Shown: in pieces, positions 17,591 to 61,854 of the stretch
Layout: each line of letters begins with the position of its first letter
Position numbering within the stretch: the stretch's first letter is position 1
Source: Amoebophrya sp. A120
Lineage: Eukaryota > Protista > Dinoflagellata
Length of the DNA stretch: 64,000 bases
Reading direction: 5' to 3'
NCBI GenBank assembly: GCA_905178155.1
Contig: CAJINV010000012.1
Location: forward strand, 1-64,000
Program-made: the position numbers and the translations under genes
Notes under the pieces: model-generated
Database searches by the model: none
Told to the model about the DNA's origin: nothing
Seen by the model: only the letters and a program-made list of their open reading frames with translations

Positions 17591-18163
17591 ATTGTCTGCT
17601 TCTTTTTATCGTGGTATATTCAAATACAAACCACACGTGATCCCTATGTATGAGTCCGAGCGCTCGTCGCAATACCCTCGCCCGGCTTCGTGTCAACGTG
17701 TTCGCTCTCACCGGAAGCGGAAGATAGGCTCTTAAGTGGGTATTTGTATGTGTGTTTGGATGCCGAGGCCTGCTATGATTCATACGACAGATGGTTACGA
17801 AAACGGCTTGATCAAATGAAATTGGATGACGTTCTGGATCGTCTCTCAAGAAAAAGTAGCTTGTCGTTGTCCTTGTCGTCTCATCGGGAAATAAAGAGTG
17901 TGCAGCTGTTTTCTCCTTCGCTCAAGGTTATCGTACTGCCAAATAAAATTTGAGCTTGCTCTCAACGCCCTGAAGTAAAGAACTCACTGACTACCCCAAA
18001 GAGGTTGTCGATTTCCTCACGGCGATCAAATTGCTACGGCGACACATCAAGAATTGGACACTGCTTGCTGCCCGTGCAGCCTGCCTGTATCCTGTTGTTC
18101 CCGTACATATAATTCGTTTGCACAACATAACTCCAATTGTAACTCAGCAAAACCCATACCAAA

Positions 18164-20828
18164 ATGGCGCTTCTTTCGTCAGCCTCCACCGCTCTCGCCC
18201 CCTTCTTGTCTTCCTCTGGAAATAAAATGGCCACCACATCATCTTCAACTGCGCCTCTCGACCACACCCTCTACCTGTATTCCACGGAAAAGCCTTGCAT
18301 CGTGTTGGATTTCGGCCGCCGCTTCACAAAGATCGGACTTTCTGGCGAGTCCCGTCCGCGTTTCGTGCTCGACACACCGGAACTGTACTATCGGCCTTGG
18401 TATGCTTTGCAAATATGTGTGGGTCTGAAAAGGTGGAACTTGTGATGCTGCTTTTGAACAATCCCAACAAAATCTGTATTGCCTGGGCAGCGAGAGAAGT
18501 CTAGTTTTCGGTGCGTGGAGCATTTCTCATTCGGCATAGACATCAAGAAGCATTCAGAAAATCTGTGATGCTAGGAAATACATCACAGACGAGACGTCAC
18601 GGGCCATGTAAAATGCGCATGACATACAAGTTGCAACCTTCCAGACCCGGCACGTTTGCATCTGATACTTGGGTCAGTGAACGGGTGATCGCGACTTCCG
18701 CCTTGGACGACGGCGGGGGTGGGGGTGGAGGGGACGATAAAGTAGAGGGAGACAAACAACGTCGATCGACTTCCTCTTCATCAAAAGCAAGAGCTAGTAG
18801 CTCGTCTAGCGCTTCGAACAAGTCCATGACGCCAGCCAAGCCTCTCCGTGCCTGGATCAAACTGCTCGAACCGCTTCTGGACAAGATTTTTTTTCAGCAA
18901 TTGAAGCTGAATCCCGTGAACAAGAGAATCATTCTCTGCGAGTCCCCCTTCCTTCCCCTTCCCTTCAAATTATGAAGTGCAAAAGCATCGTGCTAGTACT
19001 AATTGCATTACAAATTACCTTAGCGCGACAAATGGAATTTGTGATGCTGTCTTACCTTGGGATGGAGATTTGTAATGCATAATTGCAATTACTACAAGCG
19101 CGATACTTTTGCACAGGATACAGATCCGCGGTTTACTACTTGTTGTTCGAAAAGTTCAAAGCGGGCAGTGTGGTCAGCGTCTGCGACTTGCTGATGCCAC
19201 TGTATTTGACGGGGACGTCGCGGAAGGAGATAGAGTTTGATGGTGGGAAAATGCCAACATCTGCTGACAATTTCCTGTCAACGACGACGCCGAATACTTT
19301 TCTTACAGGCAGTGCCCCTGCTGCCTCAGGAACAATCACAACTTCCTCTTCGTCTTCGCCATTTTCAAGTAAACCAAAGCCCGATCCGCCAGAGCAGATT
19401 GCCACCGGGATTGTGATCGACGTGGGGCATGCGAGTACCCGGATTCTCCCCGTATTTGCCGGCGTGCCACTGTTGACCGCTCTGCAGGAGATCCGATACG
19501 GAGGAGAATCGGTGACGCAGCAGTGGGAAACGATGTTGGCGAAAGCAGCAACAGAACTTCCGTCTTTGATGACAAATAGCATGACAGGCAAAACTGAGCA
19601 GGCGGAGGACTACAAGGTGAAGCTCGGGTTTTTATGAATTGCAAAAGTATCGTGCTCATAGTAATTGCAGATATGCATGACAAATTGCCTCCCAGCGTAA
19701 GCGAGCATGACAATCTGTATTTTTCATCCTGCTGGTGCTGAGCAAACTTTTTCTTTTTGTAAATGCAATTTATACTGAGTGCGAAGATTCTTTTGCGCTG
19801 CATACTCTGTCCGCTACAACAATTTCCCTCCGCCCGACACTTCGAAGCCCGTGAAAGAGAATTCGATGGAGGAAGAGAAACTTTTCAGAGAACTGCTCGG
19901 GGAGGATGGCCGTAGGTTTCTGAACAGGACTGCAGGAACAGGAATGTCTTCGCTCACAGCTGCAGCTGCAGGAGCTGATGCTGATGGCACAACTACTAGT
20001 GCCCCAACAGGAACCACGAGGACGCCACCCTTCGTCATCCCTAGCAGGGCCTCCTCCTCTTCTTCCTCCACAAGGCGCCCCTATTGCCTAAAATGTTGCC
20101 GGCCGCAAGAGAAATGCTTCAGGAACTACGAGATCTTGACCACCTCCAGTGCCGGTAGAGCAAGAACTATGTCCTCTGACGGTGATAATGATGTCAAAGT
20201 TGAGAACTTCGTCGATTCTTCCGAGGACCAGGCCGAGGACTTCGAATCTGAGCTCCTCGTCACGGCCTTTTGGAAAGCGGTTGACCTTTGCCCACTAGAC
20301 GTGAAGACGAAGGTGGTGCAGAACGTCGTCCTGTGCGGCGGACAGAGCGGCGCGATTGGGTTTTTCCCGAGACTGGCGGAGGAGCTCCAGAAATCCGTCA
20401 CAGAAGCAGTTTTGGAGCGGCAGTTTGCGAAAAAAATGGCGAAAAAAGCGTCGTCGAAAACAGGGAGGAAAGACTCGGTGGACAATAGTGCGAAAATGGG
20501 TACTGGTGAACAAATCGCTTTATCCCCAACATCGAAACAACCGAGCAAGAAACTCCTCAACCGCGGGCTCTACGACATCAAATTTGCCCGGATCGACACC
20601 GTTCCGCCACTGACCCGGATTTGGACCGGCGCGAGCTTATTTGGCTCCGTGGTCGCGGTGACATCTCAGCCGAATTTGCCGTCGTCGGGGATAGGAGCGA
20701 GTGCTGCTGGTGGCGGGAGCAGGGGGAGTGGTGTTGATGGTGGGACAAATATTCCTGGGGAGTACACGATGGAACAGTACAAAAATGGAGAACCCATACC
20801 AGATTGGTGCGTGCAAAGTTGCGCATGA
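18164..20828 (+). CDS. ACTR10: Actin-related protein, Arp10/Arp11 (dynactin) type; 4 exons split by 3 introner elements
   Basis: EKPCIVLDFGRRFTKIGLSGESRPR, KLNPVNKRIILCES, GIVIDVGHASTRILPV, NVVLCGG, IWTGASLFG; frame restored by removing each element plus 5 nt; alternative start at 18227. Confidence 0.8.
18401..18667. mobile_element. Introner family B
   Basis: TATGCTTTGCAAATATGTGTGGGTCTG...CAGACCCGGCACGTTTGCATCTGATA; direct repeat CTTGG/CTTGG. Confidence 0.9.
18971..19120. mobile_element. Introner family A
   Basis: TATGAAGTGCAAAAGCATCG...CGATACTTTTGCACAGGATA; DR CAAAT/CAGAT. Confidence 0.9.
19633..19804. mobile_element. Introner family A (diverged)
   Basis: TATGAATTGCAAAAGTATCG...CTTTTGCGCTGCATA; DR decayed (GTTTT/CTCTG) but element+5 nt restores frame. 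Confidence 0.8.
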
Positions 20829-36643: not shown

Positions 36644-37504
36644 TCGATGTAGTCTGCAAGGCAGTTTGTTTTCCTGTCTGACTTCCTTCAACAGGCACAT
36701 CTTCATACCCAAAGTAAATGCTTAATACACTAGTTTAGCAACGAACCTGCATGACATGGAAAGTGAATACCCACTTTGCAACATGATGCTCATTTTCGAT
36801 GTTGAGTAGAGATCCCCACAGCATACCTCGACATAGCAAAGCTGCCCGTGCAATGTCAGGGCAAATTTTCTAAAACGTCGTGGTCACGATAACTACTTAC
36901 ATTTTTTTAAGGCAACCTACAGACATCTGAAACTTGTCTTGACGTTTCCTAGAATTTTTCCAGACGCATCTCGGTCATGCACCGCCAACAGGCTACCAGG
37001 TTGACAGCTAATAGATACTACTTTGATTTTTGAACTGGGACAAGTCAGACTTGTTTATCAAAATCGCATGTGAGGCTTGAAGTTGAAGACAACCAATACG
37101 AACGCAACTGAATGAGAAAGCGTAGAAAACGAAAAGCGGCAATTGCCTAGCAGAGCGCTTGACATTTGCTCTATTCCGGCGAACAAATTGCTTTCTCATC
37201 TGCGAGGGCACTAATTGCATCAGCATAGCGACCCCATTTTTTTCCCTCAGTGCTGCTGCTGGTGTTGAGTTTTTTCCGCGTAATATGAAACGGCACTTGT
37301 GCCCACAGCTCGTACATGTTTTAGCTTGTATCCTACGAGCGCAGGGTGCCAGTAGCTCGGCTAAAAGCACCACGCGAACTATCAGTAAGTGTAAAGCTAA
37401 GGACGTAGCCGCAGAACAATAAACGCTAGTAACACGACAGAGGCAGAGCCACTAGCTTCATCTATTCCAATAGATACGCATTAAAAGGAGTTCCTATCCA
37501 CTTC

Positions 37505-40189
37505 ATGCTACACAAGCTGTTTCAACATTCCTCTTCCTGCGTCTCAATGGCAAAATGGCGACTCCCTCGAAAGCTCTCGTATGCGATGGTGCCCCCTGCA
37601 TCCCTATTTCTGACCCGGAAAGCCGCACAGTGGAGACTGCGGTACGAGCAGGATCAAGCGACAGCAGCAGCTCCAGAACAACATCACCCACGACACCACA
37701 CGCCGGATCACGACCAAGGGGAAGGATACGGACTTCCCGGGGGGAGCTCCAACATCCAAAAAGGAGGGAGCAGCAGCAGCACTCGACCTCCGGGGACCTG
37801 GTCGTGCTCATCGAATGTAACAAGCCGACCAAACTCTCCCGGAGGTGTGTATCAGCAAGACCAAGAAAACTTCGTGCAAAAGTTCGATTTGATCAACATC
37901 GCGGAGCGCTGCAACATCATGGGCACCTCGAAGTTGGACTATTCGGAAATCCGGAAGTGGCACCAGGCGCGGGGGTACCTTGGGGGGATTGTTATCCTTT
38001 GTAAAAATTTTCCCACCCCATAGCTCTTCTTCTTGGTTCTTCTTGTCATGCAATGCTGCATGTCTCTCATGTGGAGTCCCATGAAACGCATTTGCTATTG
38101 CTAGCGCTGTTTCGAAGTTATTTGTGATGCTCGAATCAGGCGCATGAAACGCTATTTTTGTGATGCTGCTGCACTAGCTAAACCCGACTACACTGCGATC
38201 CCAAACTTATCATGCGCAACAACAGCTAGAGCCTGTTGATTTGTGTTGCAGATTTCCAAACTCTACTACGGTGCCGCGGGGACGTTTTTGTACGGGATAA
38301 TCGTGGTCCGGCAGCTGGATAACATGAAGCACAGCAACGACACGGTAGAAACGGGAGACCGGACTGCGTTTGGAAAACTTATGGACGATGCTTTTCAGGT
38401 ATATGATGCAGGTCTTGCATTACAAATTTCTTTGTCAAGGCAAATCAGCATTACAAATTTTATTTCTCATGCTGAGAAAATTTGTAAATGCATTTACACG
38501 AGTACGATACTTTTGCAGTTCATAAGGTATAGCCATTACTTATTCTCAGTACTTGCCATGCAAATGATCAACTCCATAGTTGTAAAAAACGCGACAGATC
38601 AACACAGATACCGTTCTCGTCATTTCCACTTGTCCCACAGCACTCCAAAAACAACGGAATCTTTTCAGGCAATCTCCGCTTACCTTCCCGCGAACTTCTT
38701 CGAAAAAAGTCCCTTCAATTTCGCCCATTTGATCCCCGAGGAGCTGCAGGAGCCGAAGAAAATCAAGATGGAATCCTTCCTCTTTGACAAGCTTGCAAAC
38801 GAAACCGAATCGATGCGGCGGGAGTGCTACTACCTCTACTACGAGATGTGCGGAAAAACCGGCGATCGGACCTACGAGGTCTTCATCCGCGGGACGTTAA
38901 TTTGGTCTGATTGGTGGCGTATGCATTGCAAAACAAGTATCGTACTCGTATAAATGCGAGTCTAGCATGACAGATCTGCTTTCTGACCTGAATCTGCATG
39001 ACAAATTTCATTTTTCTTCTACGAAAAATTTGTCATGCAATTCATACTAGTACGATAGGATACTTTTGCATTGCATATGGTGCAACTTGAACTTCCGGAA
39101 GGTTTGGGACACGGAACTAGAAAAGTACATCCACGCTGGATTTCTCCGGAAATCCGACATTCTGCTGAACGATTTGGAACCCTTGCTGCAGGACCGGCAC
39201 GGCAAGATCAGACTGCATGGACACTCACTGGGCGGCGCCATGGCGGAAATAATTGGGCTGAAATTGGAGAAACGAGGTTTCTATGTGGAGCAAGTGACCT
39301 CCTTCGGCGCACCGAAGTTTTTGACCTGCTGTCTGGGCGATAATAGTACATTGGGAGCAACAGCAGAGCCAGAAGTTGTCGTGTTGGAGGAACAGCATGA
39401 CAAGAAAGAGAAACCCAGCAGCGACTTTATCACTATCACGGCGGCGAACGACCCAGTTTATGAACTGCAAAAGTATCGTACTACTTGTACTTGTAGTAAT
39501 CGCAGTCATGCATTGCAAATCTTTATCCCTCCAAGGCAAAACAGCATGACAAATTCCATTTGTCATGCTGAGCTAATTTGTATTGCAATTACTACTAGTA
39601 CGACACTTTTGCAGTTCATACAGTTCCTTACATGCCGATTGAAGGCCCGGCATCTTGCTGGTTCAAGGGCTGGTATGTGAGCTACGGAAAAAGGTTTCAT
39701 CTTGAAGACTCCGGTTCTCATGATGTTTCAGCAGAATCACATCAGCAACCTGACAAGCAGAACTACACACTTTTCCCTTTCGGCTCCTTCCTCCACTGGC
39801 TCCAGAATTCGTTCCTCGTCGTCCCGTTTAGCAACCCGGACTCGCACCGATTGAAACATTACATCAAACTGTTGGAGGACGAGGAAAGCCGTTTCTCCTC
39901 TGTTGCAGACACTGACGGCGCAGATGAACAACGGAAAAAAGTAGGAGCAGAGACAGCAACTAGTTCGGCACAGGAAGTCGCAGTGGCACCAGAAGATCGG
40001 GGACTGCAACTGCCTGAGCTACAAATCAACTCGAGCGAAGAGGGTGATGTGGTGGGAATAAAGCAGCTGTTGCAGCAGACAACAGGCGACGTGCCTCCAA
40101 GTCCACCCGAGCCTCTTCCTCGTCCTGCCGCGCATGAGGTGCTTAGAGAGCCTGTCGAAGTCACTTCGAAGTCCGGCGCACTTCAGTAG
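37505..40189 (+). CDS. Class 3 lipase (alpha/beta hydrolase)
   Basis: IRGT...DW, IHAGF, GHSLGG, TSFGAPK, NDPV|P, H near C-terminus; reconstructed by removing 3 exonic introners and intron 38399-38668. Confidence 0.85.
37993..38299. mobile_element. Introner family H
   Basis: TATCCTTTGTAAAAATTTTCCC...GGGACGTTTTTGTACGGGATA; DR ATTGT/ATCGT. Confidence 0.85.
38402..38524. mobile_element. Introner family A lacking left TIR body, inserted in a GT donor site
   Basis: TATGATGCAGG...CGATACTTTTGCAGTTCATA; DR AGGTA/AGGTA. Confidence 0.8.
38920..39077. mobile_element. Introner family A
   Basis: TATGCATTGCAAAA...TTTTGCATTGCATA; DR TGGCG/TGGTG. Confidence 0.9.
39459..39620. mobile_element. Introner family A (reverse orientation relative to 24679)
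   Basis: TATGAACTGCAAAAGT...ACTTTTGCAGTTCATA; DR CAGTT/CAGTT. Confidence 0.93.
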
Positions 40190-50288: not shown

Positions 50289-52586
50289 ATGGCCAAGCTC
50301 AGCCTGCAGAGTTACATCTCGCAAGGGCACGCGGATGGAGGAGGAGATGACTTTCCGCTGCAAATTGTGCAGCAATTCTTCTTCGCCACGCATCAACGCA
50401 AAAGCAAGACGTTGCCGGCTCTGCGCAGTAGTAGAGAAACGCAGTCTAGTATTAGTACAACATCTTTCGCGGCACTGACACAGCCGCCCGAACGACCAGC
50501 AATCGCGAGGACCACGACTGGACACGAGATGCAGAAGCAAGCAAAAAACGAAACTTCATCCAAGCTCGACCTACTCTCCCGCCCCTCCTCCTTCGCCGCA
50601 GCCACGGACAAACCGCTGAACTGCGACCTGTCCCACCACGGACTGGGGAACCTCCCTTCCCCCGAGGATTTCTGTATCCAGTGCAGATATGTCTGGGTCT
50701 GGAAGAGTGGTCCGAGTTTGTCATGCTAGTCCTGGTTGGCACCAATAAAATCTGTGTTGCGTGAGCAGCAGAAGCACGCGAGGATGGCATTTCTAATGCA
50801 GGAGGTTTAGGCATTTTTGCAGAGCCTTGTCCAAAAGTCAAAGTGTGATGCTATAACTCGCATTCCAGGCCTTCTGGGCCATGCGAAACCAGCATGACAG
50901 ACAAAACATTCTTCGAGACGCAGACACATTTGCATTTGATATCCTGCACTGTGAAACGAAACGGCGCGGACGCGGACGATGCCGATTTGAAGACGAAGGA
51001 GGAGCTATGCAATGCAAAGGCATCGTCCTAGTATAAATTGCATTACAAATCAGCCCAGCATTACAAATTAGCCTGCCCAGCATTACAAATTAGCCTGCCC
51101 AGCATTACAAATTAGCCTGCCCAGCATTACAAATTAGCCCAGCATTACAAAGTAAATCTGTAATGCTGATTTGCCTTGAGAAAGAGATTTGTATATGCAT
51201 GAATGCAATTACTACGAGCGCGATACTTTTGCACAGGATAGGAGCTCCTGGATGTCGAGTTGAAAAAAGACACCAGCATTGCGCACTATTTTGAGAAATT
51301 TATCCTCGCAAACTTCGACCCTTACACGAAGATTCCGGAAAAATCGTATGCATTGCAAAAGTATCGTACTCGTAGTATTGCAATACAAATTAGCTCAGCA
51401 TGACAAATGGAATTTCTCATGCTGATTTAGCTTGAAAAAGAAATCTGTCTTGCATGACTGCGACTAGTACGAGTGCGATACTTTTGCACAGGATAAATCG
51501 AAGAAAGTGAAAATCCTCGAGCACTGTCTTTCTGACACGATATCCCACGAAAAAACTGTTTCATTGTGATGATTTTGCAAGATCTGCATCACAAGTTTGT
51601 TACGCATGACACCCAAAATTTGTCATGCGCACTTCCCAAGGGAAAACACGCTGGAAAACCCAATGCCTTGCAGGTGTAGCAAGACAAATAGTTCTGTGTT
51701 CCATTTTCTGCATCACAGGTTCACAGTGAAACAGTTTCTTCTTGCGATACACGAAGAAGCTACTCCAATGGCTGACCAACAGCATCGAGGACTGCAAGAA
51801 GAAAGCCCACGACCGGGAGCCAACCAGCAGCCAGGAGCCGGCGGAGTTGGTGCCACTGGCGGCTATGAACTGCAAAAGTATCGTACTCGTATAAATGCAT
51901 TGCAAATTTCCTCAGCATGAGAAATAAATTTGTAATGCAGATTTGCCTTGGAAACAAGATTTGTAATGCAAGACTTGCATTAGCATGATTTGTACGAGTA
52001 CGATGCTTTTTGCACAGGATAGCGGCGTATCAAATACAAATGCATTATGTATGCCTGGGTCTGAAGAGAACGAAACTTTAACTTGTGATGCTCGGTTGTA
52101 GATGAATGCAGAACTTCTCAATGCATGCACGCATGTCACGATCAAGAAGTTCTTCCAGCGGCGCTCTCTGCTCTCAAGAACATCCGTTACTTTTGGCGGA
52201 CATGCAACACAGATTTTCTAGAGTTGGAAAACATGCTGTATTTTCCGGACCCAGACATATTTGCATTTGATACAGCGAACGCGTTAAAAGTGGAGGAAAA
52301 GGGGGTCACGGCGCGGCAGGCTCTGGAGAGAGATTTGAAGCAATTGAAGGCGGAATTGAGAAAAGCACCGGATGAAAACAATCCGCAATACGCGCCCTGT
52401 GACGCGAAGAAGGGACCACCACCAAGGCCATGGTGCATTTTCTTGGACGGACCGAAGGAGCGAGAAGGTGAAGATATCCATACTGAAGATGAAGTTTGTA
52501 CTGCTGCGAACCCAGAGACCAGATTTAGAGGACAGGTGGAAACAAATGGACCCTTCATGGGATCTTTTGGGGCGAATATTTTTTGA
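50289..52586 (+). CDS. Hypothetical protein interrupted by 6 introners
   Basis: MAKLSLQSY...EDFC|TVKRN...EEL|LDVEL...EKS|KKVK...DT|KKLL...LAA|NALKVEEK...GANIF; stop-free after removal. Confidence 0.75.
50675..50941. mobile_element. Introner family B
   Basis: TATCCAGTGCAGATATGTCTG...CAGACACATTTGCATTTGATA; DR TTCTG/TCCTG. Confidence 0.9.
51006..51240. mobile_element. Introner family A with internal 22-bp tandem expansion
   Basis: TATGCAATGCAAAGG...CTTTTGCACAGGATA; DR GGAGC/GGAGC; CCCAGCATTACAAATTAGCCTG repeats. Confidence 0.92.
51347..51495. mobile_element. Introner family A
   Basis: TATGCATTGCAAAAGTATCG...CGATACTTTTGCACAGGATA; DR AATCG/AATCG. Confidence 0.92.
51541..51749. mobile_element. 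Introner family I
   Basis: TATCCCACGAAAAAACTGTTTCATTGTGA...TCACAGTGAAACAGTTTCTTCTTGCGATA; DR CACGA/CACGA. Confidence 0.9.
51864..52021. mobile_element. Introner family A
   Basis: TATGAACTGCAAAAG...TTTTTGCACAGGATA; DR GCGGC/GCGGC. Confidence 0.92.
52028..52272. mobile_element. Introner family B
   Basis: TATCAAATACAAATG...CATATTTGCATTTGATA; DR CGGCG/CAGCG. Confidence 0.88.
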
Positions 52587-52589
52587 AAT

Positions 52590-55140
52590 GCGGAATAAGA
52601 ACAATGATGTAAATCTAAATGCGATAAAAAAATCGAACACAGAAGTTAATGGGCATCAGAACCTCCGGTCGTTGATGATGAAAACGATACAAAAACAAAA
52701 AGCAATGGATGGAATCTGGAGAAGAAATATTCATGAGTCTGCTTCTCAAAGAAAATCTTATGATTTTCGTGATGATAGACCCTCTTCACTCAAGAACTCG
52801 ATGATGAATATAAAGGAGAAAAAAATTTTCTCATGAATGCTGTCATTGAATCCATTGAATTCGATAGATGGTTCGTGATGTGTCTGAGTATTTGACTTCA
52901 AACAAAAAAAAAATCTTCCAGAGAGATTTTAATCAATATCGATCTTTTTTTATTTCCTCAAAACCGAAAAAATATGGATGGATTATCATGATATTCGATC
53001 GAGAATCAATCCTCTTGTCGATGGAAAATGAAAAATATGAAGATACATGGGATTCGGATATCATTATTTCTTTCTCATATCGGGATATAATATTCGAGAT
53101 TCAAATAAGGATCGCAATATCATGTGTATCTTTTGATAAATTTCCATATATTCGGAGCCTATCATATTTTCGAATTTTTCAAATTTTTTTTCCCAGATTT
53201 TGACAATTTTAAAATCTATCCTTTTCTAAATTCTTAAAACATTTAATATCGGAAATATAAATATGAAATCCGATCGGAAAATATATTTGCAAGAATCATA
53301 TACCAATCATTAGAATTTCTCTAAAATTTTTGAATCTCATCAAAATATTGATAAATGATTTTGGATATTATTGATCGAAGGATTATGAATATGAATATTA
53401 GGTTTATTAGTGTCTGGCGCCAGCCAAGGGAGTACAGCGCAACTTTCCAAGGGAGTCAAGGGAGTAAGTTAAAAAAGCAGTCGCGCGTGCCAATGCGATC
53501 GGCATAAATATAGCAAAAATTCTTCGCGGCGCGCGCTGCGCGCGCGCGGCTCGACATCTGTGCGCACATCACAAAAATTTTTCGGGCCGCGCGCTGCGCG
53601 CGCGCGGCGAGGCACGTGCAGCATGTAGGACATGCACCCACGTGTGGGAATGTTGCGACGCATCAATGCGAAGCATCAATGCGAAGCATCAATGCGAAGC
53701 ATCAGTGCGAAGCATCAATGCGAAGCAGGCTAGAAAGATATGCCACGCGTGTGAGCTTCAAACTTACGGCGCGTTCTGACGGCCACTGCAACTCTTTCCC
53801 GATTGGAGAAAGCCGAAGTGGCCGCTTCAACATTTCCACTGCGTTCGTATTCTCTGTTCGGCATGGCGTTGAATCTGGTCACGCAGAACCTCGCGCGAAA
53901 GATCTCGACAAGCAAACTGCTGAAGTGGCTGCCTCAACTTCCCCTGGACAGCGGAAACTTGACATGGCCACGGCAACAGTTTACGCGTTCCTTCGCCTCC
54001 ACGCTCTATGTTGCCAGGCAGAGGCCCGGCTGCCCCGGCGACTTCTGTTGACGGGGGCGACTCTAGAAGCCCTCACCTTCTTCAAGAGGCCAGGGCCTTC
54101 GTCAACGAGCTAATGCCTAAACGCGGCCAAACCGCGGGCCGCAGCGGGGGGGGGGGGGGCAACAGGGCCCAAACCGGTGCCCGGTAAGTGCGCCCATAGC
54201 ATGCATTTTTGCGATGATTTTAGGGGAGGCAATTTGTGCAAGTTTTATCTTCCTCCCTTGGCTCCCTTGACTCCCTTCGAAGTTTCACTCCCTTGCCTAT
54301 AAAATACTCTAAATATGATATGGAGTCAAATCATTCAATCGAATTCTTGATTGAGATTATCATTTGTTAGATATTTGTCCGAAATTTGTTCGAAATCAAC
54401 ATGAGAGATTCATCTTTCTTTCTTCATTCATTGAACGCAAAAAATTCTTTTTGAATGTGCGAGATTCATCTTTTCTTTCTTCATTCATTGAACGCAAAAA
54501 ACTCCAAATAAAGAAAAACGGAAGAGAATAAAAGAAAAAAAAAAATTTAAAAAAAAAACGCTCGGATTCCATCCTCTATGTATCAATCAATCCAAGGAGA
54601 TCTTGGATTTGTCTTCTTTTTTTCTCAATTCAGGATCATTCTTCCAGATCCTGGATTTCAGGATCTATCGAATCAATCCGAAGATGAAGAATATTAAGGA
54701 TCTTTCCATTCCCTAGAATCTTAGATGACCTGATATCGATATGGAATGAAGATTCCAGATGGTGCAACTCATCAAGAAAATAACTTGGATCGAAATTCAA
54801 AGAAAAATATTAATATCCAATTAAAAAAGATTTGATACATATCCAATCGACATCTCTCTCTGTTGATACATAGCAGAATCATCAGATGATGACTTGAAAC
54901 AAATTTGCCACACAATCCATTTGCCTCAACCATCGAATCACCATCTTCATCCTGATCATTCGAAAGGTATTCCTTGAATCATGATCGATGCGATATGAGG
55001 GATCATTTAGATGGTTTTTCTGAGTTTGGCGAAATTTTCTGAGATTCTCGGTGTTGAAGTGATACGCAATGTTGTCAAGGTGATCTGATGGTCGGTGTTT
55101 CTTTTATTAAGTCTTTGTTCTCCAACATCATGAGACAAAT
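52590..55140. other. AT-rich intergenic region at the convergent strand switch
   Basis: Visibly AT-rich (52590-53415 and 54298-55140) between the last + gene and the 3' end of the first - gene. Confidence 0.75.
53422..54297. mobile_element. GC-rich element bounded by inverted arrays of CAAGGGAG motifs
   Basis: Left CAAGGGAGT x3 then AAGTTAAAA; right TTTTATCTT then CTCCCTT x4; internal (GAAGCATCAATGC)n at ~53660-53727. Confidence 0.7.
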
Positions 55141-55346
55141 ATCGTGGGTGAAAAAATTCAGACGAGTTCCATTTTCATCCTTTCTGTGATGTCGAATGTC
55201 GTTCGGGTTTTATCTTATGTGTTCTGTGTGTCCGTCGATAGAACAGCTTGGGTCGTGGCGAAAAGTCACATGATGGAGCCATTAGAGGAGCACCTCCATC
55301 ACCACCATCTAAGAAATCATCAGAAATAGAAGACCCTTGTATCAAT

Positions 55347-57316
55347 CTATCGTCGTCTGTTGTGTCGCCGGGAATCGTCCTCTTGCCGTTTGTTCTTGTC
55401 CCGTCGTCCGCCTCGATCGTCTCTCGAGTTGTGTCCCCTGTTATTTCCCCGGCTCCGGCTTCTGCTTCGACCACGCCCGCCACCGCGATGTTCTCTCTCC
55501 ACATCTCGGCGAGATTTTTTATCATTCCCCCGGCTGTCGTTCCTGCCGCCATGATCCCGTCCAGACCGATGCTTCGTTCCACGGCCCGCACCACTACTTC
55601 GCCGACTATCTACACTGCTGTCGCTTCGGTTATTCACCACATCAGAAGATTCACTGCGTTCCCTGCGGCGGTCGTTCGTAGTTTTTTTCTCATTTGTGTT
55701 CTTGTTCAGCTGGTGCTGGCCGCGCTTCTTTGCAGTTCTACCACGTTGATTATCTACGGATGAGTCCGAGTCGTCGTAGTTCTCCGCCGAGCTGTCTTCA
55801 TCCGAGGAATTCTCCGAATCACTATTACAGCGTTTAATTTTAATACTTTTTCCAGTATTATCTTTTTTCATCTTCCCCCGCTGTTCCTCCTCCCAAATTT
55901 CCCCGTGTAAACTGTACAACTTGAACTGTTCGGATTGTAAAAAAGACGCCTGTTTCGCCGAGAAATACTTCACGTTGCGCAGAAGTTTCAGCAAGATCGC
56001 CTTCTCCTGCGGCTCGTTGCAGTTTTGCAGGAAAGAGCGGTGGACGACGATGTGGTAGAAGGCATCCTGCAGGTTCAACCGGTCTAAACTCGCGAGTTTC
56101 AAACACTTGTCAATCCACTTGATCTATGCAGTGCACAAGTATCGCACTAGTACGTAGAAATCGCATGACAAATCCCCCCAGCATGAGAAATGGAATTTGT
56201 AATGCGGATTTTGTTAGGTTAAGAAGGAGATTTGTAATGCATGACTGCGATAATTACTACGACTGCGATACTTTTGCACAGGATATGATCCGCGCGCCCG
56301 GCGTCTTCGCGTACACTTCCTCCGCGTCCATGGTCACCTGCGGAAGGTTGTTCTATCCTTTGCAAAAGCGTCCCCACCCCAGAGTTCTCATGCAAATACG
56401 CATGCCAAAAAAGTTTCTCATGCGGAGCGCCATGAGAGGCACTTTCTAGCTGTGTTGTGGGATTTGTGATGCTATAATCAGCATGATGTGCTAGATCTGT
56501 GATGCTTCTGAACTACCTAAACAGAATCACACTACGAGGAAAAATCTGTCATGCGAAACAACCAAAGCTGGCTGATTTGTCTAGCAAATTTCCCATCTTG
56601 ACTCTGGTGTGGGGACGTTTTTACTCGGGATATGTTCAGCTCTTTATTCATCTTCTTGTCCTGATCCGGATTTTTGTTACTCCGGGTAACGGCCTCGGTG
56701 CCGATCGGGATATCTTTCCTATCGAATGCAATAATATGTCTGGAGGTGGTTCTCTGGAACAAGTAGGGTGCAAAGCTAGCATGCAAGGTGGTTTCTTGTT
56801 GTCGTATAATAATGGCCCATACAGATTATTTTTGGCATACAGGGTCTAACATGACAGATTCTGCATTGTGCAGATCTGTATCATGCTTCTCGTCCGGCAT
56901 GAGAAACTGCCAGCACTGGACAACTTTTGCTAATCATGCAACACAGATTTATTTTGCATCAGATCCAGACGTCGACCCAGACGACCTTTTTGCATTTGAT
57001 ACTTCCGGTTCCGAAACCATTGGGTCCGGGCCGCCTGCGCCAGGGCGGCGTTGTAGTGGATGGAAGATATGGCGTTCTCAACTGTTACATTCTCAAGCGT
57101 TGCATGATCTGTCATGCAGAATTGCCTTGACTATCGACGCCATCAAGCCGCTTCGCATGACAAATTCTCAGACGGCCAAACAGGCTGAGAATCTGCGCCA
57201 AATCTGTCATGCAAGACGCGCAAGGTCCTTCCTTTCACTTTTGCCACTGTTGCATCGCAAATGCATGCAACAGCTGAGAATGTAATAATTGAGAACACCA
57301 TAGAAGAGGAAGACAT
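55347..57316 (-). CDS. Hypothetical protein with Arg/Ser/Asp-rich (RS-like) C-terminus, 5 exons
   Basis: MSSSS|IHYNAALAQ...RNRK|DIPIG...KELN|NLPQ...ARI|KWIDKCLKLASLD...RGRSRSRSRG; 4 introners removed. Confidence 0.75.
56125..56285. mobile_element. Introner family A
   Basis: TATGCAGTGCACAAGTATCGC...GCGATACTTTTGCACAGGATA; DR TGATC/TGATC. Confidence 0.92.
56354..56632. mobile_element. Introner family H
   Basis: TATCCTTTGCAAAAGCGTCCCCACCCCAGAG...CTCTGGTGTGGGGACGTTTTTACTCGGGATA; DR TGTTC/TGTTC. Confidence 0.92.
56720..57001. mobile_element. Introner family B
   Basis: TATCGAATGCAA...TTGCATTTGATA; DR TTTCC/CTTCC. Confidence 0.88.
57068..57302. mobile_element. Introner family D
   Basis: TATGGCGTTCTCAACTGTTACAT...ATGTAATAATTGAGAACACCATA; DR GAAGA/GAAGA. 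Confidence 0.92.
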
Positions 57317-59097
57317 TTTGTTTTTGTTGTTTATGAAGCTTTTAAACATCAAGCGGGGATTCTTGTTGGAGCTTGTGTCAAGGTGACAGTGACAGACTGA
57401 AAATAGAGCAAACAAATAGGAAATGACGTGACCTTGTAGATGAAGCCCCTATCACCACAAATGAAAAAAGCTCACTCTCATCGCCACTTCTTTTTCGTAA
57501 TACTAATATTTCTACTACTCGGTCGCTGCTTGAAGTAAGGAGTCAGATCAGATCAGATAGTTTTATAGCATAGCATGGGGTTTGGCGTGTCGGAACTTTA
57601 AGAGTGCAGCCGACTTTTTCATGAACTAGAGCTCGACCACGCGTACTATTCTAGTAGAGGCGGCTAACAGTGATGCTTGTACCCCGCCCGCGATACAAAT
57701 TCCCCGGGCCGTATATCATGCCTATTGGGTGGGACTGGGAATTTCGGCCACTGAACAAAACCCGACAAGCACACCGAAAGTCTTATACCGGTCGATGCTA
57801 AAGCTTCACGCGCCGCAACCAGAGCACCGGCTGATTACCCTAAACCCTGTTTAAGTTATCAAGCACTTACTTTTTACTATTCGTCTAATACAAGTTCCCA
57901 TTTGCATGCATCTACACCTCGGCCTGGATCATTTTGATCTTTTTCTTTTCGTTTTTTTTTTATGTACCCTGAACCCCTCCATCAAACTTCCCATGTACGT
58001 GCAAATTGCCCGGCCCACACGGACGCTTCTTTTCCCTAGTGGGAATATACTCGTGTACTGGTGGGGACAGCCCGCTGCGCACTGGACTCGCCGATGGGAA
58101 TTTACGATCTAGTTGTTTTTTGTTTTTCGTACGAAAACTTTTTGATCTACTTGAACTGCAGTACTGTAACGCTATGTATAAAAAAGAATTTTTACCACCT
58201 TCTTGGTTTTTTTGGCCGAGGTGTCTAAGGCGCTACTAGTGCCACTGATCCGCACAGTGGGCTTCCGCGCTACGAATATTTGTAGGTCGTCGAAGGTGGG
58301 CGCTACGCGGAATGTACTACACGAAGGTTTTGGCTTGGCTTGGCTGCGGGCGAGTGGCGAGTTGCGGGGCGGAGTTCCAGAACTTTTTTGTAAATACTCA
58401 TAAAGAGTAAGTTTACAAATGCTCGCTCGAAAGCGGCGGTAGGGACGTTGTGTAACTAGAAAAAAGCGATAAGGGAAAAAAATAAAAAGGCTTTTGCGCT
58501 TGCTTTTTGACTTTGGCCTGGGTCGCTCGCACGCATGCGATGATCTGGTAGAATGTGTTGAAGAAAGTAGAGAAAAAAAAAGTAAAGAGCAACCGCTTTA
58601 TTTCCATCATACGGACGGGACTACACTTGTTTAGAAAAATGTGGATCTTGTCAACGGCATCAACATATTTTTTTTTATTTGCAATGAAAACTAAAACTCA
58701 GCTGGTATGCAGTTGGACTTAGACACGTCGGGGGCATTTTTCGGTCTTCGGTTTGCGAAGAGGAAGAGGTGGTCGTTTGCATCAACGATTATATTTCTCA
58801 GCATTGGAAGATAATTTTTTTTCTTGAGTGAGAGATGGAACTACAGTCGGTTTCTTGTCAAGACGAAAGTCGGGCGATGGCGTCCTCCACCATCTCAGAG
58901 TAGCAGTCAGAGGACAGCCAACACCCAGACAATGATCATCCTGATCATGATTCCTGAGTCTCGGATTGGAAATCGCAGTAGCAGATTCTTCAGATTTTTG
59001 CTTGCTCACTTTCTCATATTTCAAAATCTGTCGCGTGGATTTGAAGTCAAGCAATGAATGAGATCAGCAAGAACTACTTCAACAGCTTCGTCTATCT

Positions 59098-61854
59098 TTA
59101 GGTTGATGATGTGAAGGTTTTCATCATGAGTTCCTCTCGAAATTGAAAATATTCCTGCTCAACAAAACTTTGCGCTCGAACTAGAACATCCTCCATAAGG
59201 TCGGGGGTGAGAAACAAATCACTGCTCTTCATTTTCTGCCGCCCGCTCGCGCTTGCAGCTTGTTCAACATCGAGCGTCTTTAATAGCCAATGCACCGCCC
59301 GCATCGGATTGTCGACAAAATCTTCATTTAATATCACGTCACCTGCGTGTTGTTGCGTGGGATCATGAAGATGTTGCTGATCCCCACCAGCATCTCCGAA
59401 GTCCACAATGTCACCGTTCAAAATCAGCTGGAAATACGGGCCACAGGCGGGTGGGTAGGTGGCGAAAAAGTTGTACGACTCATCCTCTTCTTGCACCAGC
59501 TGTTCCGGCGACGCGACACCTCCTCCAGGCGTGTAGTTTATTCGAGTAGATGTCTTTCGCGGAGAAGTCGTTCTTTCCTGTTCGTCTGTCAAATCATATC
59601 CGTGCAGTGCTGCGGGTTTTTTAACCGCCGTCGAGAGTTGGTTTGTATGGTCAGCAGGCTGCTCGTCAACAACGTCTCTACTTGAACTTTGTGCTGCGTT
59701 TAGCTGTAGAAAATTTGCACCCCCCGGGGTTATGTCGAGGGAGATGAACTTGAGAAAATTTTTTGGTCGCGGAGGTTCTTTTGCTCCTGGTCCTGCTTCT
59801 GTCGTTTTGTTATTGTTGTCGTAGTGATTGTTCTGTGTCGTGGTCGTGGAGCGGTTGTTAAAAGTGTTCTGGTGCGACGAGGCTTCTAGTGCTATCACTT
59901 CGCTGACAATTCGGGCCAGGTTCTCCATAAGAAACCCCGCCAGCGAAGAGCGGAAGTTTGTCTTCGCATCGGAGGTCTTCAATAAGACCAAGCTGGCTTG
60001 ACGCCCGTGGACGGAGTTTTCGTATGCGCTGCAAATGAGTAGTCTGGTGGTGTTTTGCAACAAACATGGGGCGCTAGATTGTGAAGGGTGCGCCTGTGTG
60101 CGCTGCAGTGCTACGCAGCCAAGCATGACAAGCTTTTCAACACCTATGCTTTTCGTTGTCCGCATGGCAAGAAACATCAGAAGGCTCCTCCTTTCCTCCC
60201 TTATGCATCTTCACAGTGTTAAGCTCAAGGGCGGCCATGATGCGAGACAAGCATGACAAACTTGCTGCAATAAATTTCCACACCCGGTGGACTACAAAGT
60301 TGCATTTGATATTTCGATCACGTCGACCATCTCAGGCACCGTGATCTCGCGGACGTAGCCAGTGTCGACCTTCGCGTTAGCAGTTGGAATATGCCTTGCA
60401 GAAGTATCGCACATCGAGAACTCATTCATTTTCTTAGGGTGACCAATCCGCATTACAACACAAATTTCGTATCTCACGCGCAGGAAATTTGTAATTCTAT
60501 TTCTATTTCTAGAGCGATACTTTTGCACAGGATATGCCACTGTTCCAGGTGCCGTCGACGCGGATGAGAAAGCTTTCTTCTCCGTGCCGGTACTTGAAAG
60601 TGCATCTGTAGTTGTTGTACTAGTACCCATTTGATTCATCATCTCCGTGGTCGCGCCGGCGTTGCTTCTCTCCCCTTGCGCCAGAAGTTTTTGTTTCTTC
60701 TTTTCCTCCACAAAGGCAAAGACCGCAAAAGGCGTGGCTGCCAACGTGAAAAACCCGAGCCAGGGCAGAACTGCGAATAGCTTCTGCCACTTCCTTTGTT
60801 CCATCAAATGCAAACATGTCTGGGTCTGGACAAGTGGAAGTGCAAGGCCTGTTATGCATATTTATTCCCATCAAGTAGACCCATGATGTCTGTGATGCTT
60901 GCCGTAGCATCACAGCTTGTGCTGGCGCGACGGCCTTCTGAGTCTGATGCTCATACCGCATGAGAAATACCCTCTCCGCGCAACGAAGACTGGAGCTCTT
61001 TATTTGCTGCTCAACATGCAATACAGATTTTATGTAGAGTCCAAAGATACTAGCATCACAAGTTGCAGCACCTTTCCAGACCGAGACATACTTGCAGCTG
61101 ATATCTTCCGGCAGCAGCCGACTTTCGTCGATGAGGAAAGTTGTTTTATCGGGGTTCGTATGAAGTGCAAATATGTCTGGGTCTGGAAGATTGTCATGCA
61201 CGTTTTGCATGAGCCATGATGTCTGTGACGCATGCCCTAGCATCACAGTTTTTTCTAGGGCTTCTTGATGCCTATTCCGCATGACAAATGCCCTCGCCTT
61301 GTAGCAACAGTTACATTTCCTTTGCTGCTCATGCAATACAGAATCTTCTTGGAATCCAAATGCAGCATCGCAAATCCCATTCTTTCCAGACCCAGACACA
61401 TTTGCAAGGCATAGTTCGCACTGTACCGGGTTTTCAGAAAGGCCTCGATAGAGCAGGTGCCTTTATCGCCGAAGGGGGTCACGGCGGTAGAGGAGTGGTG
61501 ATGCAGAAGCTCTTCTTGCCGTTTTTCAAGGTCATTCGCGGCCAATACAATTTTTCTCCCCACATCAACTTGGTCCAGGGGAAGCACCCGCTTCTCGCTG
61601 TTCTGGAAGGTGTTGTTGTTGGTAGAAGTTCTGCTGATGTCAAAATCGTCGAGATCTTCTCGTGTAGCGGAGGTGCGGATAGTAGTTTCACCTGGTGGCG
61701 GAGCCGACTCTGCTACAGGTGCGGCGATGGTGGAACGCTGGCGGAGTTGCAGCCGCTTGCTGTAGTGCCACTCGGTGAGCAACACTCTCGGTATCAAAGC
61801 CGTCCTGCAACCACAGCAGCTCGTCCTCCCGCGGAGGAGAGACACTGAGAGCAT
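59098..61854 (-). CDS. Hypothetical single-pass membrane protein, possibly mitochondrion-targeted; 5 exons
   Basis: Arg-rich N-terminus MLSVSLLRGRTS...; TM LFAVLPWLGFFTLAATPFAVFAFV; frame restored across 4 introners. Confidence 0.7.
60023..60311. mobile_element. Introner family B-like (diverged)
   Basis: TATGCGCTGCAAATG...GTTGCATTTGATA; DR TTTCG/TTTCG. Confidence 0.85.
60390..60534. mobile_element. Introner family A (diverged DR)
   Basis: TATGCCTTGCAGAAGTATCGC...GCGATACTTTTGCACAGGATA; DR TGGAA/TGCCA. Confidence 0.85.
60802..61103. mobile_element. Introner family B (CAT left end)
   Basis: CATCAAATGCAAACATGTCTGGGTCTGGA...AGACATACTTGCAGCTGATA; DR TGTTC/TCTTC. Confidence 0.88.
61159..61413. 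mobile_element. Introner family B
   Basis: TATGAAGTGCAAATATGTCTGGGTCTGGAA...TTCCAGACCCAGACACATTTGCAAGGCATA; DR GTTCG/GTTCG. Confidence 0.93.

Follow-up and report, generated by a model that had tools for sequence, protein, structure and literature searches.

Adjacent introners with overlapping target duplications in a gene of Amoebophrya sp. A120 may enclose a one-nucleotide exon

The introners of Amoebophrya sp. A120 were described by Farhat et al. 2021 (PMC7789003) as elements whose inverted repeats start with TAT, seven nucleotides and AAA, with direct repeats of 3–5 nt over the junctions and non-canonical ends, and a hairpin together with an altered spliceosome without U1 was proposed for their removal. 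The border position is left unplaced in that account because the direct repeats hide the cut, and its main text makes no mention of short exons or of nested or adjacent elements. Similarly, the passages on introners in PMC12130899 and PMC11282704 give no A120 register (the number of repeat bases before the cut), and the literature covered, which includes few subscription journals, holds neither a fixed A120 register nor an exon of 0–1 nt between introners. Exons of one nucleotide are known from other systems, such as the constitutive exon of Arabidopsis APC11 (PMC4674806) and that of Fusarium CYP621A (PMC12940212), and one-base spliceosomal exons are thought to be handled by sequential intron removal (PMC4674806). 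A one-base exon in placozoan cox1 arose from an intron landing beside another, its introns being mitochondrial, group I and self-splicing, with splicing intermediates shown (PMC5436844). Fungal stwintrons and recursive splicing leave no exon between the cuts, and in stwintrons a canonical GT-AG inner intron breaks the signal of a canonical outer one (PMC5587772, PMC8469720, PMC8605326). In addition, the non-conventional introns of euglenids and Fritillaria borealis are MITE-like, with inverted repeats, target duplications and non-canonical ends, and those of Fritillaria are removed by a modified U2 spliceosome (PMC11282704).

The pair of introners analysed here, elements A and B (Table 1), shares its ends, repeats and non-canonical splicing with the published A120 introners, whose hairpin model it matches in folding prediction, and departs from that description in its register, here restricted to 4, and in a duplication common to both elements (PMC7789003). 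With APC11 and CYP621A it would have in common a frame-critical one-base exon, intron definition and a proposed sequential removal; those exons are conserved and lie between ordinary introns (PMC4674806, PMC12940212), whereas the exon considered here is predicted, lies between non-canonical introns and would have come into being at once from two transposon insertions. The placozoan case matches in the landing of one intron beside another, but the present elements are nuclear and MITE-like and their one-base exon is deduced from the register. Unlike stwintrons, which correspond to a rival reading of the pair discussed below, neither removal is needed under register 4 to rebuild the ends of the other, although stwintron-type signal creation would be possible in a route that starts with a GT-AG cut. 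The euglenid and Fritillaria introns resemble the pair in the traits named above and differ from A120 introners in end motifs and lineage (PMC11282704).

The insertion sites of elements A and B are 1 nt apart and their 5-nt target duplications overlap; the coordinates, the GCGGCG spacer, the overlap and the offset given in a first-pass annotation are all exact in the sequence. Element A starts with TATGAACTGCAAAA, in which TAT, seven variable bases and at least three A reproduce the end pattern of A120 introners, and the right end of element B, read on the reverse strand, is TATCAAATGCAAA, which fits the same pattern; both elements are members of the known A120 introner class, and proteins of the window carry the database name Amoebophrya sp. 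A120. In BLAST comparisons within the window (the whole stretch of 64,000 nt that was analysed), element A has full-length matches to several other copies at 70–79%, and element B has only its ends of about 30 nt in common with other elements. At least 43 TAT…ATA elements flanked by 5-nt repeats lie in the window; the two repeat copies are equal in 30 of them and unequal in 13. The direct repeats are equal at 5/5 bases for A and at 4/5 for B, where A52274 in the right duplication creates a CAG ending at 52275. The DNA-like run X5 spans 51712–51888, 51957–52271 and 52244–53424 with 0 differences, and both junctions and the G/A mismatch are therefore not assembly errors; X5 behaves like DNA and is possibly the source sample, hence not independent. 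A partial family A copy, 90% identical to element A over 119 nt, was also observed at 38406–38524, inside a stretch omitted by the lipase-like protein P0001 though the frame is open through it (class 3 lipase, PF01764, about 37500–40189 on the plus strand, with an A25 ortholog).

Table 1. Features of the introner pair and its host gene, and registers of the eight informative introners
Feature	Position	Strand	Description	Basis
Host gene	50289..52586	+	334-aa protein, six introners	model; translation equals P0005, CAD7964341.1
Host gene exons at register 4	50289..52586	+	385, 59, 101, 40, 109, 1 and 310 nt	model
Left target duplication of A	51859..51863	+	GCGGC	sequence
Predicted intron A	51863..52025	+	CT…GG, 163 nt	predicted from register 4
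Candidate composite intron (rival reading)	51863..52275	+	CT…AG, 413 nt; one of 3 one-step cuts giving the observed mRNA	
Element A	51864..52021	+	158 nt, TAT…ATA, MITE-like introner with terminal inverted repeats	sequence
Spacer	52022..52027	+	GCGGCG; right repeat of A (GCGGC, 52022–52026) overlaps left repeat of B (CGGCG, 52023–52027)	
Predicted one-nucleotide exon	52026..52026	+	C, middle base of Ala codon	predicted
Predicted intron B	52027..52276	+	GT…GC, 250 nt	predicted from register 4
Element B	52028..52272	+	245-nt introner, TAT…ATA	sequence
Right duplication of B	52273..52277	+	CAGCG, base 2 differs from CGGCG	sequence
Element 50675			register 2–5	RNA
Element B (this pair)			register 2–5	RNA (mRNA keeps G)
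Element 56720, B type			register 0–4	RNA
Element 60390			register 3–5	RNA
Element 18971			register 3–5	annotated protein
Element 19633			register 3–4	annotated protein P0004
Element 38920			register 4–5	annotated protein
Element 60802			register 4–5	annotated protein P0003

With 28 within-gene gaps at the mean spacing of the window, an offset of 1 would arise by chance with a probability of about 0.11, and of 0.03–0.25 over the rates tried; the adjacency is not improbable, and the pair thus needs tolerance, not targeting or a special mechanism. Between 18401 and 63808, none of the 28 within-gene gaps measures 2–29 nt against 3.2–4.8 expected (P 0.04–0.009, noticed post hoc). A scan of metagenome contigs for an end of A followed by an element start within 5–12 nt recovered two loci, L001 and L002, and the same pattern had 0 matches in viral contigs. 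L001 has an 8-nt spacer and an offset of 3, which would leave an exon of 3 nt in an open, protein-like frame, and its element families are those of the window, with up to 92% identity to window copies. L002, a locus known from its sequence alone, has a 6-nt spacer, an offset of 1 and the same element families; its frame is open after removal on either strand, and no AG stands at the equivalent place on either strand.

The model of the host gene with all six elements removed translates exactly to the public 334-aa protein P0005 (CAD7964341.1, Amoebophrya sp. A120), and RNA joints are present at the four upstream introners. The first and last exons have no Pfam match, and a search of the protein against representatives gave two matches, namely itself and a weak repeat match. 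At the pair, RNA contig record 9 of run X3 joins 51749–51861 to 52275–52704 without a gap, and the downstream pieces in runs X4 and X1 likewise begin at 52275; the join was read from the contig-piece table and is direct in one of the three RNA runs (X3). The three runs represent one sample, classed as RNA by guess, and all have depth 0 in the intergenic bins 52904–53204, 54409–54709 and 54710–55010. The resulting mRNA reads CTG GCG GCG AAC (LAAN), with A52274 left out, so that both elements are removed in frame as the first-pass annotation had expected; its proposal that the CGGCG/CAGCG mismatch would report the cut register also held, since the mRNA keeps G. The other splicing outcomes tried all truncate the host protein (234–264 aa). 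Joining the donor of A to the register-4 acceptor of B ends the protein at 234 of 334 aa, and the middle base C52026 is thus needed for the reading frame, while cutting B as a GT-AG intron together with the normal cut of A gives a frameshift and a stop after 264 aa. The pair is a real, expressed feature, the element class itself being already known.

Among the 15 joints listed of 38 in X1, 13 are exact introner removals, and the list also includes one GT-AG intron, on the same contig as introners, and one skip inside a repeat; in a second joint table, with 15 of 50 rows listed, many rows come from repeats in X5. The raw RNA runs X9–X11 have 0 depth in most bins of the genes. In X1 the spliced contig has a depth of 25.6 against 7.67 for a contig that retains 51931–52304, that is, the 3' part of A, the spacer and B; X3 and X4 lack the retained contig, and in X1 no such branch occurs at the four introners further upstream in the host gene. 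The retained contig could be a sign that the pair leaves the RNA more slowly, but 3' bias and pruning account for it as well, and as contigs prune short low-depth paths, missing singly spliced contigs were not used as evidence. Elsewhere in the window, a multi-copy transcribed stretch lies between two genes at 57570–58534, with X5 depth of 200–440 and RNA contigs carrying differences; X10 reads match part of it near 58384–58534, and Rfam gave 0 matches in the window, this stretch included.

The register can be read wherever the two repeats of an element are unequal, as the mRNA reveals which copy is kept. Since splicing discards one of the two copies of every repeat, the middle exon measures 1 + j − i nt if A is cut at position i of its repeat and B at position j. 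Element strands were taken from the reading frames, the genes at 55000–61500 being on the minus strand. Eight of the 13 unequal elements are informative (Table 1), one is synonymous (37993), and 21581, 24349, 35652 and 63399 were left out. The RNA data alone give register 3 or 4, and with the annotated proteins only 4 remains across the eight elements, which is also the intersection for the A family and for the B type separately; a register shared by all eight has P=0.028 if cuts are independent and random. The lower bound of 4 comes from two annotated proteins, not from reads, and the register may differ between elements. The annotation agrees with RNA at both of the two non-synonymous sites that have both (50675 and 60390), and at element 38920 the A25 ortholog P0002 has the Arg predicted by register 4–5. 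The A120 annotation was built from transcript alignments, and all nine predominant non-canonical A120 motifs in Table S4 of PMC7789003 start with NT, which fits register 4, subject to the placement of ambiguous junctions by its authors. Among the 36 oriented elements, register 4 yields donors of 9 GT, 9 TT, 9 CT and 9 AT and 15 different acceptor dinucleotides, with GT-AG ends in 0/36, and no splicing route makes both introns of the pair GT-AG. From the even donor split and the varied acceptors, the cut is apparently set by position from the element ends; such a constant spacing between the cut and TAT/ATA agrees with the element-defined removal suggested in the first-pass annotation.

Some individual introners depart from the common form. 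Element 19633–19804 of family A, one of three introners in the gene of the actin-family protein P0004 (PF00022, about 18160–20828 on the plus strand), has repeats that differ at 3/5 bases (GTTTT/CTCTG) and is still removed in frame, at register 3–4, according to P0004; identity of the repeats is thus not needed for the cut. The B-type element 60802–61103 has CAT in place of TAT on the plus strand, which makes ATG its 3' end in the RNA, and its removal in P0003 means that a terminal ATA is not strictly required. Element 18971–19120 also has CAG at bases 1–3 of its 3' repeat (CAAAT/CAGAT), and registers 3 and 4 both fit.

Register 4 at both elements leaves a single two-step route, with C52026 as the middle exon, and we favour, with moderate confidence, two ordinary excisions in succession, in either order, around this one-base exon. 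At either end of an introner, the cut would follow base 4 of the 5-nt repeat (intron form N-TAT…ATA-NNNN), at a position measured from the element ends and not read from GT/AG, so that bases 1–4 of the left duplication of A would be exonic and base 5 (C51863) would be the first intron base. A modified host spliceosome would remove the introners by intron definition with the terminal hairpin as guide, and the two cuts could not be simultaneous, either order being workable. The five bases upstream of B and the two downstream of A are identical whether the neighbour is present or gone; the overlapping duplications thus keep the junction flanks unchanged, and no fixed removal order is required. 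Such flanks may matter for U5 contacts. As to origin, the second insertion may have landed by chance in the duplication left by the first, and both insertion orders of A and B yield an identical sequence. In folding predictions each element folds on itself (region z = −5.9), with about 25 expected end pairs for A in 6/6 contexts holding A whole, and with the end pairing of B present in 6/9 contexts, partial in one and lost in two. Pairing between the outer ends or between the inner ends of the pair is predicted absent, the outer ends having a pairing probability of 0 and a forcing cost of 16–18 kcal/mol. The six-nucleotide micro-exon of the first-pass annotation describes the DNA spacer only, as the register data give 1 nt, or 0. 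Its view that exon definition is implausible stands, but its use of the tiny exon as an argument against a spliceosome does not: by analogy with the published 1-nt spliceosomal exons, so small an exon would not exclude one.

Against the two-step route stands the G/A difference, which creates the very AG that would serve a one-step cut. The GT at 52027 with the AG at 52275 would bound a perfect canonical intron; with a usable AG one base away, the two-step model needs machinery that ignores it. It is possible, if doubtful, that there is no middle exon at all, either through a composite intron (51863–52275) or through removal of B as a GT-AG intron (52027–52275) followed by removal of A with a 3' cut one base off its usual place, which amounts to a zero-base exon of stwintron-like or recursive kind in which the G/A difference keeps the frame. 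Such routes yield the same mRNA and use the normal donor of A with a canonical AG, which exists only in the right repeat of B, through the G/A difference, and CT-AG, at 3%, ranks with the predominant A120 motifs (PMC7789003, Table S4). In X1, moreover, the fully spliced and retained contigs sum to a depth of 14.49 against 14.5 observed in the bin, so that nothing is left over for a third form, but contigs drop rare forms. An AG is present in two of the five elements able to gain one at repeat bases 2–3 by a single change (P 0.06–0.20), but this enrichment was noticed post hoc and is not significant, and the G/A change is a synonymous CpG transition whose direction is not readable. The routes lacking a middle exon also place the 3' cut three bases after ATA, against the four indicated by the other elements; no pairing is predicted between the outer ends of the pair, and the second offset-1 pair (L002) is without the equivalent AG. 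A real middle exon of 2–6 nt appears very unlikely: the mRNA of the pair by itself permits middle exons of 0–6 nt (21 two-step routes), but six nucleotides would take a cut at register 0 in A and at register 5 in B. Registers 0–2 are excluded by all four informative A-family elements and register 5, in RNA, by the B-type element 56720, and the upper limit from the RNA data alone is 2 nt.

A different question is which machinery makes the cuts. That the terminal hairpin is recognised by a protein nuclease and ligase, which cut a set distance from it, in parallel to what is suspected for euglenid non-conventional introns, is unlikely but would be compatible with the 1-nt exon. The lack of base preference at donor +1 and the variety of acceptors among the 36 elements suit such a route, as do the in-frame removal of the P0004 introner with 3/5 repeat mismatches and the failure to find U1 snRNA in A120 (PMC7789003). 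On the other hand, A120 retains 83/89 spliceosomal proteins plus U2, U4, U5 and U6 (PMC7789003), and one contig with spliced introners also has a GT-AG intron spliced out. Register 4 gives T at intron +2 and A at +3. The spliceosomal donor consensus has the same T at +2 and A at +3. DNA-level programmed elimination or an assembly artefact, for which the guessed RNA status of X1, X3 and X4 leaves room, is extremely improbable and is largely ruled out by the zero depth of these runs in the three intergenic bins, the GT-AG intron skipped in X1 and the unspliced junctions without differences in the DNA-like X5.

Amoebophrya has tens of thousands of non-canonical introns and no detectable U1 snRNA, and the pair offers a natural experiment on how these introns are removed: if the cut is set by position, a one-base exon and two kinds of intermediate should occur, and if it is set by sequence, the AG at 52275 should be used. 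The cut rule of Amoebophrya introners thus becomes testable with existing RNA-seq. It also shows how closely intron-making transposons can insert without breaking a gene. More tentatively, A120 may apply a ruler, cutting always after duplication base 4 as counted from the hairpin ends, irrespective of sequence and even of a nearby canonical AG, and would then produce one-base exons wholesale. If the ruler is true, given random insertion and tolerance, one-base exons on the order of 30–300 would be expected among 29,850 elements, which annotation would overlook and which would contrast with the few one-base exons described in all eukaryotes.
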